A stretch of 6,055 bases of DNA from a virus (IMGVR_UViG_2660238408_000005); one strand, 5' to 3'. Positions 96 through 6,046 are shown, counted from the first letter of the stretch. Notes: generated by a model from the sequence alone, not told the origin. Numbers and translations: made by a program.

Positions 96-974
96 ATGAT
101 GACGTTTAACCTGCGTGAACAACAAAAAAGACTACAGGCGCGAATGGATGAGTTACGGGCAGAGATTGCATTTGCTCAGAAGGGCGAAAAGCCATGGCCT
201 TATCGTTCCTGCCTGATGCGTGAAGGTCGCGGATATTGCGAAAAACATGGCGAATATCACACGCATATACTGGTGTGGAGCGATCGTAATGGCGAGGACA
301 GAGAAGAAATTTCATGCTGCCCTGACTGCTTAATCGCTGAGGCCAACGATTTGACCATGGAGCTGTCGTCCATCAAGGCGGAAGAGCTGACTGATAACGC
401 CGGAATTGCCCTGCGTTTTCGGGACTGCGAGTTTGATAATTATCTGGAGGTTAATCCTGGCGCAGCCAGAAATCTTGCGGCCTGTCGCCGCTATGCGGAG
501 AACTGGCCAGATATGCTGGAGAACGGTACCAGTCTTGTTATGACCGGCAGTTGTGGTACCGGAAAAAATCATCTGGCTGTGGCTATGGCAAAACACATCA
601 TCCGTAACTATCTGGCCAGTGTGGAGATCACCGACGTGATGCGCCTTACCCGTGCTGTGAAAAATTGCTGGCGGAATGACAGCGAAAAAACAGCGGATGA
701 AGTTATTGAGCGTTATGCGTCAATGGATTTGCTGATCATCGACGAAGTTGGCGTTCAGTTTGGCAGCGCGGCTGAAATGGCTATTTTGCAGGAAATTATC
801 AACGCCAGGTACGAAAGTATCTTGCCCACCATTCTGATCAGTAACCTCTCACCGGAAGAGTTGTGGGCGTTCATCAGTCCCCGAATTGCCGACAGGATCA
901 CAGACGGGGGACGCAACTGGTTGTCGTTTAACTGGCCCAGTTACCGTTCTCGTATCAGAGGTGTGGCTGCATGA
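96..974 (+). CDS. DnaC-like replication protein / helicase loader (AAA+ ATPase) with a Cys/His-rich N-terminal region
   Basis: Walker A GSCGTGKNHLA, Walker B LLIIDEVG, and C-terminal WLSFNWPSYRSR matching the DnaC C-terminal motif (FNWDSYRSR, from memory). N-terminal segment CEKHGEYHTH...CCPDC looks like a metal-binding motif. Start chosen at ATG 96, which has SD GAGGTGA at 84-90 with a 5-nt spacer; the ORF track begins at TTG 3, which I regard as a spurious extension. Stop overlaps the next gene start (ATGA at 971-974). Confidence 0.85.
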   Translation: MMTFNLREQQKRLQARMDELRAEIAFAQKGEKPWPYRSCLMREGRGYCEKHGEYHTHILVWSDRNGEDREEISCCPDCLIAEANDLTMELSSIKAEELTDNAGIALRFRDCEFDNYLEVNPGAARNLAACRRYAENWPDMLENGTSLVMTGSCGTGKNHLAVAMAKHIIRNYLASVEITDVMRLTRAVKNCWRNDSEKTADEVIERYASMDLLIIDEVGVQFGSAAEMAILQEIINARYESILPTILISNLSPEELWAFISPRIADRITDGGRNWLSFNWPSYRSRIRGVAA

Positions 975-2362
975 CAACTCCAGTATGGCGTAACGATGAC
1001 CTTGAAGGCGCTGTCATCGGCGCGTTCTTTCTGCGCGGAGCAGATCCTGAAGTGATGGATATTCTGGCCACACTGCCAGCGGACGTTTTTTCTGTACGAG
1101 CGTATCAGGATATCTATACAGGCATCTGCAGACAGGCCCGTGTTTCAGGAGTGATTGACCCCGTGCTGTTGTGTAATGAGATGCCGGAACTTGCCCCGGT
1201 GATTACTGATACCGGGCGTAAAACCTGGGTGAAGTCTTCACTGGAGCACTATGTTGCAGCGTTGCGGCGCAATGCCGCACTGCGCGATGCAGAAAAAACA
1301 CTGAATGAGGCGCTGCAGAAATTACGTGATGCGCATACCTGTGAAGCAGCTGAAGATGCCCTGAAGGATGCGCAGAACATGATGGTCACACTGTCGACAG
1401 GAAAGGGCGTCATTCAGCCGGTACATATTGATGATGTGCTTCCGGAAGTGGTTGAGCGTGTTGAATGCCGGAATCAGGGGCTGGAGAAATCCAGGACGTT
1501 GATGACCGGTATTGATGAACTGGACGCAAAAACAGGCGGTATGGAGCCCGGAGACCTGGTATTCATTGCCGCCCGTCCTTCGATGGGGAAAACCGAACTT
1601 GCGCTGGACATCATCGACAAGGTGACTGAGCAGGGGCATGGTGTGCTTCTGTTCACCATGGAGATGGCGAACATCCAGATTGGTGAACGTATGGTGTCTG
1701 CGGCTGGAGGGATGCCAGTATCACGCCTGAAATCTGTGGCTCACTTTGAAGATGAAGACTGGACGCGTTTCTCACAAGGGGTGGGGCGGATGACCGGGCG
1801 CAATATCTGGATGGTGGACCAGGCGAACCTGGCCATTGATGAGATATGCGCAACAACGAAACACCACCTGATTAAATATCCGGAAACGGCGCTGGTGGTG
1901 GTTGATTATCTCGGGCTGATAAAAACCCGAACCACGGGGCGTCATGACCTTGCCGTGGGTGAAATCTCAAAGGGGCTTAAAGGCCTGGCAAAATCCGGTG
2001 GTTTTCCGTTGATTGCGCTGAGCCAGCTCTCCCGCGGTGTGGAGTCCAGACCCAATAAACGTCCCATGAACTCAGACCTGAAAAATTCCGGAGAAATAGA
2101 GGCGGATGCAGACATCATTCTGATGCTTTACAGGGATGAAGTGTACAACCCGGATACGCAGGCCAGGGGCATCGCAGAAATCAATATCACGAAACAACGT
2201 AACGGTTCTCTGGGAACGATTTACCGGCGTTTTTATAACGGACATTTTCTGCCTGTGGACCAGGAAAGTGCACGGGTGCTTTCCACTCCCATGAAGCCCG
2301 GCAATCCGCGCAGATACAGTAATAAACGAACTGACAGCAGTAAGATGGAGCGTTTCTTTTGA
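971..2362 (+). CDS. DnaB-family replicative DNA helicase (phage-encoded)
   Basis: 463 aa. Walker A GDLVFIAARPSMGKTELA, Walker B-like VVVDYLGLI, and ALSQLSR...RPMNSDLKNSGEIEADADIILMLYRDEVY, which parallels E. coli DnaB motifs (SQLNR, DADLIMFIYRDEVY, from memory). Has a DnaB-like N-terminal domain. Translationally coupled to the upstream loader gene. Confidence 0.9.
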   Translation: MTTPVWRNDDLEGAVIGAFFLRGADPEVMDILATLPADVFSVRAYQDIYTGICRQARVSGVIDPVLLCNEMPELAPVITDTGRKTWVKSSLEHYVAALRRNAALRDAEKTLNEALQKLRDAHTCEAAEDALKDAQNMMVTLSTGKGVIQPVHIDDVLPEVVERVECRNQGLEKSRTLMTGIDELDAKTGGMEPGDLVFIAARPSMGKTELALDIIDKVTEQGHGVLLFTMEMANIQIGERMVSAAGGMPVSRLKSVAHFEDEDWTRFSQGVGRMTGRNIWMVDQANLAIDEICATTKHHLIKYPETALVVVDYLGLIKTRTTGRHDLAVGEISKGLKGLAKSGGFPLIALSQLSRGVESRPNKRPMNSDLKNSGEIEADADIILMLYRDEVYNPDTQARGIAEINITKQRNGSLGTIYRRFYNGHFLPVDQESARVLSTPMKPGNPRRYSNKRTDSSKMERFF

Positions 2363-2616
2363 ACAACCAGACAATGACTTTTACCCCTGAACAATTGCGT
2401 AAACACGCGCAGGAAATGCTGCGTCATGCTGAACAACTCGAAAAAACGGGCATAACAAAAGATGCTATCCGTAAAGATATGGTACCCGCGCTTCGGGAAC
2501 TGATGCAGGCGAAGCATCGCGCACAGAAAGCAGTAGATGAGCTGGTGGACTGTGTGGCAGAGCTGGAAACCAGAGTCGGAAAGTTTGAAAAACTGGTGCA
2601 GGAGGCGCTGCGCTGA
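2359..2616 (+). CDS. Hypothetical small protein, predicted all-helical / coiled-coil, nin-region position
   Basis: 85-aa ORF with TTG start at 2359 overlapping the helicase stop (TTGA), GGAG at 2347-2350 with an 8-nt spacer. Alternative ATG at 2374 (80 aa) has no SD. Charged, helical composition (EQLEK...RELMQAKHRAQKAVDELVD). No family recognised. Confidence 0.5.
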   Translation: MNNQTMTFTPEQLRKHAQEMLRHAEQLEKTGITKDAIRKDMVPALRELMQAKHRAQKAVDELVDCVAELETRVGKFEKLVQEALR

Positions 2617-2710
2617 TGCGCCATGAGTTTGTTTTGCCCTGGCTTGTGCGCGATCATTATGTCCCTGGTGGAAAGCCCGGGATAAAAATCACCGAACCGG
2701 AGAGTATTTG

Positions 2711-2911
2711 ATGAGCGTCAAAATTCAAACGATACCGGAACTGCTTATCCAGACACGAGGTAATATGACCGAAGTTTCACGAATGCTGAACTGTAATCGC
2801 GCCACGGTAAGAAAATATGCTGAAGATAAAGAGGGCAAAGGGCACGCCATTGTTGATGGTGTTCTGATTGTTCATCGTGGATGGGACAGGGGTAAAGACA
2901 GTGATGCGTGA
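2711..2911 (+). CDS. ninH: NinH-like small DNA-binding protein
   Basis: 66 aa starting at ATG 2711, SD GGAGAG at 2699-2704. Shares the pattern IP.LL...GN.TEV.R.L.C.R.TVRKY..DK.GK.HAIV..VL.VHRGW with lambda NinH as recalled from memory. Sits immediately upstream of Q, as in lambda. The ORF track start at 2708 is TTG. Confidence 0.7.
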
Positions 2912-3284
2912 TATTCAGCAGGTTCTTGAGCGCTGGGGCGCGTGGGTGGCTAATAATCATGAGGATGTGACCTGGTCGTCCATTGCTGCCGGTTTTAAGG
3001 GATTAATCCCTTCAAAAGTAAAATCCCGCCCGCAATGCTGTGACGATGACGCGATGGTTATATGTGGGTGTATGGCCCGCCTTAACCGGAACAACAACGA
3101 TCTACATGACTTGCTGGTTGACTACTACGTGTTTGGGATGACATTCATGACGCTGGCGCGGAAGCATGGATGCTCAGATGGTTATATAGGAAAGAAGCTA
3201 CAAAAAGCCGAGGGGGTGGTGGAAGGAATGTTGATGATGTTGGGTGTCCGGTTAGAAATGGACAAATATATTGAACATCCCTGA
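2904..3284 (+). CDS. Q: Late-gene antitermination protein Q, phage 21 / QuuD type
   Basis: 126 aa from ATG 2904: [34 protein letters not shown]...[16 protein letters not shown]...[15 protein letters not shown]. This is near-collinear with E. coli DLP12 QuuD / Q21-family antiterminators as recalled. The ORF track start at 2868 adds 12 residues and would overlap ninH more deeply; ATG 2904 overlaps the ninH stop by 8 nt. Confidence 0.8.
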
Positions 3285-3311
3285 TGGTAAGGGGCGACTT
3301 TCTAGAAAATA

Positions 3312-3327
3312 TTTTACGTACGTAAAA
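3312..3327. promoter_or_regulatory. Perfect 16-bp palindrome TTTTACGTACGTAAAA in the Q-terminator intergenic region; candidate operator or Q-binding / late-promoter element
   Basis: The sequence is its own reverse complement. An overlapping AAAATATTTT palindrome lies at 3306-3315. It sits where lambdoid phages carry the late promoter PR' and qut. Function is inferred, not demonstrated. Confidence 0.3.
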
Positions 3328-3340
3328 AACGGGATATTCT
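3313..3340 (+). promoter_or_regulatory. Candidate late promoter (PR'-like): -35 TTTACG (3313-3318), 16-nt spacer, -10 TATTCT (3335-3340)
   Basis: Hexamer matches to sigma70 consensus are weak to moderate. Position is right for PR' (downstream of Q, upstream of terminator). Alternative hexamer choices exist. Confidence 0.2.
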
Positions 3341-3370
3341 GTTAAGAGTGGTTGCTTCGCCACACAGCTT

Positions 3371-3397
3371 AAACCCGCCTCCGGGCGGGTTTTTTAT
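3371..3397 (+). terminator. Rho-independent terminator, candidate tR'
   Basis: Stem CCCGCC (3374-3379), loop TCCG, stem GGCGGG (3384-3389), followed by TTTTTT (3390-3395). The 5' AAA could extend the stem by pairing with the T tract. Confidence 0.7.
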
Positions 3398-3445
3398 GCC
3401 TGAAAAACGGTACAGGACGTTAAACACGCTGGTGGTCAGATGAGT

Positions 3446-3474
3446 TTGCAGATGTGATGACATATGGTTATTAT
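3446..3474 (+). promoter_or_regulatory. Candidate sigma70 promoter for the downstream tRNA: -35 TTGCAG (3446-3451), 17-nt spacer, -10 TATTAT (3469-3474)
   Basis: The predicted transcription start is about 3481-3482, a few nt upstream of the tRNA 5' end at 3484. Hexamers read directly from the sequence. Confidence 0.35.
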
Positions 3475-3483
3475 TCTGCCTCC

Positions 3484-3559
3484 GGCCCTTTAGCTCAGTT
3501 GGNNNNNNNNNNNNNNNNNNNNNNNNNNNNNNNNNNNNNNNNNNNNNNNNNNNNNNNNN
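3484..3559 (+). tRNA. tRNA gene, 5' end only visible (3484-3502); remainder is masked, so isotype is undetermined and the 3' coordinate is an estimate
   Basis: GGCCCTT-T-A-GCTC-AGTTGG gives a 7-nt acceptor arm, U8, A9, D-stem GCTC and the canonical D-loop AGTTGG. This resembles the 5' end of enterobacterial tRNAs such as Ile/Thr/Lys (from memory). tRNA genes between Q and the lysis genes are typical of lambdoid and Stx-type prophages. Confidence 0.5.
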
Positions 3560-3917
3560 NNNNNNNNNNNNNNNNNNNNNNNNNNNNNNNNNNNNNNNNN
3601 NNNNNNNNNNNNNNNNNNNNNNNNNNNNNNNNNNNNNNNNNNNNNNNNNNNNNNNNNNNNNNNNNNNNNNNNNNNNNNNNNNNNNNNNNNNNNNNNNNNN
3701 NNNNNNNNNNNNNNNNNNNNNNNNNNNNNNNNNNNNNNNNNNNNNNNNNNNNNNNNNNNNNNNNNNNNNNNNNNNNNNNNNNNNNNNNNNNNNNNNNNNN
3801 NNNNNNNNNNNNNNNNNNNNNNNNNNNNNNNNNNNNNNNNNNNNNNNNNNNNNNNNNNNNNNNNNNNNNNNNNNNNNNNNNNNNNNNNNNNNNNNNNNNN
3901 NNNNNNNNNNNNNNNNN
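3503..3917. other. Masked / undetermined sequence (415 N)
   Basis: A run of N directly visible in the sequence. Nothing inside can be annotated. It is flanked 5' by the tRNA start and 3' by a T7 tract. Confidence 1.
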
Positions 3918-4355: not shown

Positions 4356-4985
4356 ATGAAGCATGAAGAAATGAATCAGCGATTCAATCACCTGGAAAAT
4401 GAAATCACTGAGCTTAATAAAAAATTGTCGGCGTTGGTGAGTTCTGAAGATGAAAACAAACGCCGCGATGAGCATTATGCGGCGATTTACGATTACTGCC
4501 ACAAAGTCGCTCACGAGACTTTTATGAAGTTTTTGCAGGAAAAGTTTTTACCGGCCGCATTGTCAGAAAAAGAGGCGGCTTACCTGCGGCCTGAGTACGT
4601 CATTACGGTTAACAGTGCCGGAGAGGAAGAGCATAAAAGTGATTTTATTGCGTCTGCACCGGATAAAGACCAGGAACCCCATCGGCCTTTCAGGGTTTCC
4701 TGTGAAGAGGGTGAGTTCGTCGTTTATGAGAACGGAAAACCTGTCCGGGCATCGCATCATCACTGCCTGAAAATTATTAATCTCGCTATCAGATGCCTGA
4801 AAGACGAAAACACCAGAGTTATGAAACGCATTGGCCGTTGCATGGGGTATTTGCAGGTGGCGGCAGAGATTGAAGCACTTGCCAGTGGTGCAGACATGGA
4901 TGCTGCGGTGCGGGAGGCTCTTCTTCGTGATTTCAATACTCCCCCTTTAAGAAAGAGCCTGATGACTGGATCCAGCCGGGGCTGA
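4356..4985 (+). CDS. Hypothetical 209-aa soluble protein of unknown function inserted inside the lysis cassette (moron candidate)
   Basis: ATG 4356 lies 3 nt after the holin stop, with GGAG at 4344-4347 (8-nt spacer). Long open frame with no TM segment or signal peptide evident. Acidic, coiled-coil-like N-terminus (NQRFNHLENEITELNKKLSALVSSEDENKRRDEH), several Cys/His (HHHC, CxxxxxxxxC). First half is visibly AT-rich relative to its neighbours. No family recognised by eye. Confidence 0.6.
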   Translation: MKHEEMNQRFNHLENEITELNKKLSALVSSEDENKRRDEHYAAIYDYCHKVAHETFMKFLQEKFLPAALSEKEAAYLRPEYVITVNSAGEEEHKSDFIASAPDKDQEPHRPFRVSCEEGEFVVYENGKPVRASHHHCLKIINLAIRCLKDENTRVMKRIGRCMGYLQVAAEIEALASGADMDAAVREALLRDFNTPPLRKSLMTGSSRG

Positions 4986-5584: not shown

Positions 5585-5985
5585 GCAGAGTCACCGCGAT
5601 TATCTCCGCTCTGGTTATCTGCATCATCGTCTGCCTGTCATGGGCTGTTAATCATTACCGTGATAACGCCATTACCTACAAAGAGCAGCGCGACAAAAAC
5701 GCCGGAGAACTGAAGCTGGCGAACGCAACCATTACTGACATGCAGCAGCGCCAGCGTGATGCTGATGCACTCGATGCTAAATACACGAAGGAGTTAGCTG
5801 ATGCGAAAGCTGAAAATGATGCTCTTCGGCGCAAGCTTGATAATGGTGGTCGGGTGCTCGTCAAAGGAAAATGCCCTGTGCCATCCTCAGCCGAAACCTC
5901 CAGCGCCTCCGGCATGGGCAATGATGCCACCGTCGAACTCTCTCCAGTTGCTGGACGAAACGTTCTCGGTATCCGGGACGGGTGA
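5581..5985 (+). CDS. Rz: Rz-like i-spanin (inner-membrane spanin subunit)
   Basis: ATG 5581 overlaps the endolysin stop (ATGA). N-terminal [21 protein letters not shown] plus a coiled-coil region. The first ~85 aa are near-identical to lambda Rz as recalled ([34 protein letters not shown]...[19 protein letters not shown]); the C-terminal portion diverges and is shorter. The ORF track start at 5566 is an upstream extension. Confidence 0.85.
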
Positions 5986-5995
5986 GGTAGCCTGA
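5801..5995 (+). CDS. Rz1: Rz1-like o-spanin (outer-membrane lipoprotein), overlapping Rz in the +1 frame
   Basis: 64 aa. Signal peptide [19 protein letters not shown] with lipobox VVGC, and proline-rich mature part ([16 protein letters not shown]) resembling lambda Rz1 (..VVGC.SK...PPPPPAW.MQPP, from memory). SD GAAGGAG at 5787-5793 with a 7-nt spacer. Ends 10 nt past the Rz stop. Confidence 0.8.
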
Positions 5996-6046
5996 GTTTA
6001 ACGGACACTCCTTCCTGAAATAGAATGGCATCAGAAGGAGCTAATA

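Follow-up and report, generated by a model that had tools for sequence, protein, structure and literature searches.

The 31-codon ORF located between an 85-aa gene and ninH in a lambdoid prophage of E. coli is very probably, as judged from sequence comparison, a relic of rusA, which in phages encodes a Holliday-junction resolvase and which here lost its internal codons by an in-frame deletion. Codons 1–9 correspond to the rusA 5' end, codons 10–31 and the stop to the rusA 3' end, and about 88–93 internal codons are missing. The analysis was carried out on a stretch of 6,055 bp (hereafter, the window) representing the early-right and lysis part of the prophage (Table 1), and its segment 2300–2960 matches E. 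coli O121 strain 201805972 at 100% identity. In this identical record, PGAP calls the helicase, the 85-aa protein with TTG as its start codon, ninH and Q, and leaves 2617–2710 unannotated, in agreement with the original prediction that the ORF is unlisted. The overlooked small gene which this prediction implied was not borne out, since the flank alignments and the RusA profile point to an in-frame internal-deletion remnant of rusA.

Table 1. Features of the window (6,055 bp of a lambdoid E. coli prophage, covering its early-right and lysis part).
Feature	Position	Strand	Remarks
DnaC/IstB-like ATPase	to 974	+	
DnaB-like replicative helicase	971–2362	+	Pfam DnaB_C, E 3e-72; PGAP 'replicative DNA helicase'
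85-aa gene	2359–2616	+	probable start TTG 2359; stop TGA 2614–2616; PHROG 2565
31-codon ORF encoding MRHEFVLPWLVRDHYVPGGKPGIKITEPESI (probable rusA relic)	2616–2711	+	ATG 2616; stop TGA 2709–2711
Approximate deletion/recombination junction	2639–2645		inside the probable relic; ..TTGCC/CTGGC/TTGTGCGCG..
GGAG, putative Shine-Dalgarno of ninH	2699–2702	+	in the kept rusA 3' end, 8 nt upstream of ATG 2711
ninH	2711–2911	+	Pfam PF06322 Phage_NinH, E 3.6e-26; PGAP 'protein ninH'
Antiterminator Q	2904–3284	+	Pfam Phage_antitermQ PF06530, E 4e-54; PGAP
Masked tRNA cluster, holin, 209-aa ORF, endolysin, Rz and Rz1, in this order	further 3' of Q	+	

Homology of the 31-codon ORF to both ends of rusA

A RusA profile HMM, built from 11 distinct RusA proteins of the fetched loci, aligned residues 1–9 of the peptide with HMM positions 1–9 and residues 10–28 with positions 98–116 of 123, in a collinear manner and with an E-value of 5e-7 in a one-sequence search. 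On the left side, window positions 357–2638 are shared at 99.6% identity with an IMG/VR prophage (L060), which then carries a full-length 124-aa rusA opening from the same TGATG, the product of which matches NCBIfam RusA (E 7.8e-23). Likewise, the 85-aa gene of E. coli 14EC017 is followed, via the same TGATG, by a 119-aa annotated RusA beginning MRHEFILPY. When the segment 2300–2960 was submitted to megablast, homology to phiP27, to Stx1a phages and to about 165 E. coli genomes ended at 2620 or 2638, and the gene following the 85-aa gene under those matches was annotated 'antiterminator Q' or 'RusA'. On the right side, a sensitive blastn of 2616–2800 showed that the window corresponds, from 2661 or 2679 onward, to the rusA 3' end and ninH of HK97, HK022, mEp235 and about 940 E. 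coli genomes, under features annotated 'RusA' and 'ninH'.

The last 22 codons and the stop of the relic align with rusA 3' ends without gap, in frame and to the same stop. This is illustrated by the comparison with locus L125, in which LVRDHYVPGGKPGIKITEPESI stands against IVRGLPVPGGRLGIKITELECA, each followed by the stop (48/69 nt, 14/22 aa); the corresponding value for locus L004 is 46/69 nt. The full-length rusA of L125 combines both end types, with an MRHEF... start and a ...VPGGRLGIKITELECA end. The two ends of the ORF are hence homologous to rusA, in frame and syntenic between the 85-aa gene and ninH. The boundaries are shared as well: L060 and a further locus (L002) have the same TGATG upstream, where the 85-aa gene ends, and HK97-type phages have the same downstream overlap between rusA stop and ninH start.

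Homology to the rusA 5' end linked to the 85-aa gene ends at 2638 and the register of the rusA 3' end (IVRG... vs LVRD...) is recovered from 2643, the breakpoint being only approximate because no exact full-length parent was found. Indeed, a back-translated pattern for DHYVPGGKPGIKIT retrieved from IMG/VR only 16 identical deletion alleles and no full-length parent, and a ninH-based locus search in the same database returned the same clones, one distant locus and two loci in which ninG lies upstream, with no parent among them. Against a rusA origin it may be said that the nearest rusA 3' ends share only about 70% nucleotide identity with the relic over 69 nt, and that at otherwise conserved positions the relic does not follow the RusA consensus (VRG to VRD, GGRLG to GGKPG), which could reflect decay or simply a divergent parent. 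Scans of the 31-aa peptide against Pfam, PHROGs and NCBIfam gave no matches, and tblastn of the peptide against phages gave weak matches only (E about 1–8). The weak matches listed sit under rusA or Holliday-junction-resolvase features, which is suggestive and alone not significant; the organism tally of this search also contains Gordonia and Enterococcus phages, probably as chance matches.

Loss of resolvase function

RusA activity depends critically on D70, D72, K76 and D90/D91 (PMC1636454). The equivalents of these residues in the RusA of L060 are D69, D71, K75 and D89/D90 (RRDLDNILK at 67–75, DD at 89–90), all of them in the block missing from the relic. As all catalytic residues belong to the deleted block, the relic peptide cannot be a resolvase. 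It also lacks the full-length fold of about 120 aa from end to end, only HMM positions 1–9 and 98–116 of 123 being represented. The likeness to the RusA family (Pfam PF05866; E. coli DLP12 and phage 82 RusA; HK97 gp67) is thus confined to the first 9 and last 22 codons, whereas the internal part of the enzymes, including the Mg2+-binding and catalytic residues, is absent, so that the ORF is pseudogene-like and not a member enzyme.

Distribution of the relic

The relic was found in 9 of 5,426 complete E. coli genomes (at least 99% identity), in 16 IMG/VR contigs, base-identical over at least 140 nt, and as the same allele in two retrieved GTDB genomes; a related-locus search with a narrower alignment led to 5 genome loci. 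Among the copies found there is zero sequence variation, and this identity of every copy points to one recent event. Across the 80 IMG/VR loci carrying the 85-aa gene, the next gene was directly Q in 39, a full-length rusA in 25 (fused to the following gene in 2 of them) and the relic in 16. Conservation of the 31-codon frame in homologous regions, by which the original prediction proposed to be judged, therefore fails, as these relatives have full-length rusA or Q directly. Since the frame is present as one allele only and is not conserved as such, the 31-codon ORF is not a conserved gene.

In the two loci with a fused gene (L115 and L118), the rusA downstream of the 85-aa gene is apparently joined in frame to the next gene. 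The resulting ORF (MLHEFVLPYPP...QSVAKVD) has 319 aa and reflects either a lost stop codon or a genuine fusion. A further arrangement was observed in a second prophage remnant (positions 2453–3000 of L125 and L126, from Shigella flexneri SFBU1023 and E. coli ECMA0423), in which only the 3' half of the 85-aa gene is kept (residues 40–85), fused to a leader that equals the first 16 residues of a minus-strand ORF (5861–6031) starting downstream of Rz/Rz1. After the truncated gene comes a full-length rusA with GIKITELECA at its end, and the whole looks like a prophage rearrangement.

Overlapping gene boundaries and translation signals

All five junctions, read directly from the sequence, consist of stop/start overlaps. 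The DnaC-like stop and the helicase start share ATGA (971–974), the helicase stop (TGA 2360–2362) and the 85-aa start (TTG 2359) share TTGA (2359–2362), the relic is bounded by TGATG on both sides (2614–2618 with the 85-aa stop, 2709–2713 with the ninH start), and the ninH stop and Q start overlap by 8 nt (ATGCGTGA, 2904–2911). The coordinates and the overlap predicted for every junction from helicase to Q were all correct, and the proposed chain of overlapping ORFs was supported. The overlaps are not due to chance but are inherited gene boundaries, shared with relatives, and the chain is probably translationally coupled. According to PMC8022706, which cites Kroger & Hobom (1982; 'chain of interlinked genes') and Cheng et al. 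(1995), all lambdoid phages have nin genes in tight packing and with overlaps of the ATGA type.

The last codons of the 85-aa gene contain AGGAGG (2600–2605), which lies 10 nt before ATG 2616 and constitutes the Shine-Dalgarno of the 31-codon ORF. This motif is found at the same place in 78 of the 80 loci of relatives, whether rusA or Q comes next. As ninH has its own putative Shine-Dalgarno (Table 1), coupling to the relic may not matter for its translation.

A minimal nin-like region

The order on the plus strand (DnaC-like, DnaB-like, 85-aa gene, relic, ninH, Q) corresponds to the position of a lambdoid nin region, and the NinH profile (PF06322) was matched with 91.3 bits, above the gathering cutoff of 29.8. 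As in lambdoid nin regions, small packed genes with ATGA/TGATG overlaps lie between the replication genes and Q, with ninH directly before Q. Here, however, the region is much reduced and lacks ren, ninA-G, ninX/Y/Z and roi. The minimal nin-like region that had been proposed is thus supported, with nothing but the 85-aa gene, ninH and the relic of rusA standing between helicase and Q. The accompanying statement that the lambda ren/ninB-ninG set is absent holds in so far as no homologues occur between helicase and Q; it has to be qualified in that the rusA relic stays, rusA occupying the ninG slot in HK97-type phages. A close arrangement is that of the early-right region of phiP27 and Stx1a-converting phages (phiP27 L19 helicase, L20 hypothetical, L21 Q), in which the helicase and the 85-aa gene (L20 homologue) share about 90% DNA identity with the window up to the TGATG (2614–2620). 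In phiP27, Q directly follows the 85-aa gene, whereas in the window the rusA relic and ninH are found between them.

Several other observations were made in the window. For the DnaC/IstB-like gene (3–974), the mechanical ORF list starts at TTG 3 and PGAP at ATG 96 (identical record L001, 1297–2175, offset 1201). The tRNA cluster that follows Q is N-masked (3503–3917), and its 5' edge, which is unmasked (3484–3502, GGCCCTTTAGCTCAGTTGG), corresponds to the start of a tRNA; tRNA-Ile, -Arg, -Thr and -Gly are annotated at this cluster in the E. coli record identical over 2300–2960. About 90 nt downstream of Q, a GC-rich hairpin with a T-run (3374–3396, AAACCCGCCTCCGGGCGGGTTTTTT), not listed by a simple terminator scan, looks like the intrinsic terminator of a Q-modified late leader (tR'-like). 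A promoter/terminator scan of 2200–3500 gave sites no more numerous than in shuffled controls. The 209-aa ORF between holin and endolysin (4356–4985) matches PHROG 1085, without known function (E 1e-73). In E. coli O121 201805972 (L001, 5573–6741), the lysis cassette is disrupted, with an IS911 immediately behind the holin gene, whereas the holin–209-aa–R–Rz cassette of the window is intact.

Proposed origin and alternative explanations

The ancestor would have carried the helicase, the 85-aa gene, rusA, ninH and Q in this order, with a stop/start overlap at each boundary. A single event would have cut rusA codons ~10 to ~97–100 (roughly 270 bp) in frame, leaving 9 N-terminal and 22 C-terminal codons; this event would have been a deletion within the gene or else a crossover in which two rusA alleles were misaligned. 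The AGGAGG, the ATG within TGATG, the stop within the TGATG shared with ninH and the GGAG of ninH would all have been kept from rusA. Ribosomes on the early-right transcript may then translate these 31 codons before they reach ninH and Q, with the relic acting at most as a passive translated spacer. Indeed, because the rusA Shine-Dalgarno, the ATG and both TGATG overlaps were kept, the relic is probably still translated, as a passive bridge to ninH/Q. The in-frame outcome has a 1-in-3 chance expectation and is thus not evidence of selection.

With regard to the type of event, it is possible, though somewhat less than probable, that the relic is a module-joining scar, produced by an out-of-register, frame-keeping crossover that joined the 5' end of a 'helicase-85aa-rusA' phage to the 3' end of a 'rusA-ninH-Q' phage and thereby imported ninH-Q. 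Several data are consistent with such an import: on the left, the 99.6% identity to L060-type prophages goes no further than 2638; ninH-Q is without close relative outside the clonal group, the best match being 83.5% (L004), followed by values of 74–76%; and rusA alleles linked to the 85-aa gene mostly end in ..GVKIYEITGDNDGA, the end of the relic resembling the ninH-linked ..GIKITELE... However, L125 carries a full-length rusA in which a start of the 85aa-linked type is combined with a GIKITELE-type end, and given this allele with both end types, a single-gene parent with a simple deletion is equally possible.

Two readings that dispense with a rusA remnant were also weighed. The strong Shine-Dalgarno AGGAGG, the ATG, the overlaps on both sides and the fact that the deletion is in frame would fit a real, selected small-protein gene missed by the pipelines, for example a micropeptide that has a function of its own, or a piece of RusA interfering with a resolvase. 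Yet the Shine-Dalgarno, the ATG and the overlaps are all inherited from rusA, a single invariant allele exists (the 9 E. coli genomes and the 16 identical IMG/VR contigs), relatives carry full-length rusA or no gene at this site, and the peptide has neither a family match nor any diversity on which selection could be shown, which makes such a gene hardly credible. The least credible explanation is that the 85-aa gene and ninH are separated by a non-coding spacer which contains an open frame by chance: the short length (31 codons), the absence of a PGAP call and the lack of a family match would be expected from it, but both ends are homologous to rusA ends, in frame and in register, and the start and stop coincide with those of the rusA of relatives.

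The 85-aa gene and its product

The prediction that the 85-aa ORF is coding was supported by a pN/pS of 0.07 and by the location of 56 of 83 variable sites at third codon positions (37 distinct alleles): it is a real gene under strong purifying selection. That its product has no recognised family was supported in so far as curated families are concerned, Pfam and NCBIfam giving no match above threshold; PHROG 2565, a family without known function, was matched (E 2.7e-32, 113 bits). The protein covers the C-terminal ~80 positions of the profiles of both PHROG 2565 and PHROG 2539 (E 1.4e-17 for the latter). Some members of these families reach 170–265 aa and possess an additional domain at the N-terminus and, in certain cases, an insert rich in Cys, whereas the 85-aa protein would be a bare helical hairpin. 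This predicted fold comes from an AlphaFold2 model with helices at 10–29 and 34–84 (pLDDT 83.5). A profile search and a Foldseek fold search against the PDB gave nothing significant, and Pfam scans of the longer homologues returned sub-threshold coiled-coil noise only. A HMMER search of 1.84 billion cluster representatives retrieved only 33 relatives at E ≤ 1e-3; in a 24-sequence alignment, K39, P43 and D64 are invariant.

The gene probably starts at TTG 2359 and hence overlaps the helicase stop, an alternative in-frame ATG being present at 2374. The TTG start is supported by two relatives devoid of an ATG at 2374, by changes that are mostly synonymous in the 15 nt between TTG and ATG, and by homologues of 68% and 65% identity that have I or V at that residue and an N-terminus of the same length. 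Antisense ORFs (2424–2657 and 2233–2517) were considered and rejected, protein-level homologues, gene boundaries and annotation favouring the plus-strand gene. The 77-aa antisense ORF at 2424–2657 (minus strand) shows a pN/pS of 0.117, compared with 0.070 for the sense frame; this low value arises because wobble positions are shared with the 85-aa frame, and is an expected artefact and not gene evidence.

In E. coli loci, the 85-aa gene constantly overlaps the end of the replication module, at the place that ren occupies in lambda. A prophage of Klebsiella spallanzanii carries a 69%-identical homologue, which lies after a different 312-aa ORF and before a 298-aa ORF and overlaps both. It has been considered, as a rather unlikely proposal, that the 85-aa protein is a replication accessory factor (a modulator of the DnaB-type helicase or its loader) or a ren-like anti-exclusion factor, the relic being kept for ribosome flow to ninH/Q.

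Significance

The overlap chain is the normal architecture of lambdoid nin regions, a minimal nin region (helicase, small ORF, Q) is already known from phiP27, and gene remnants are commonplace at mosaic junctions, so that nothing new is brought beyond a small annotation point. The biological weight of the relic is small and its main value lies in annotation. A well-formed ORF, with a Shine-Dalgarno, an ATG and two overlaps, can be a deletion scar, and coupling signals alone are hence not evidence of a gene in mosaic prophages. The 85-aa PHROG 2565 protein, for its part, is to be flagged as a small, uncharacterised and clearly selected phage gene at the replication/nin boundary. For the prophage lineage itself, the relic means that its own Holliday-junction resolvase has been lost.
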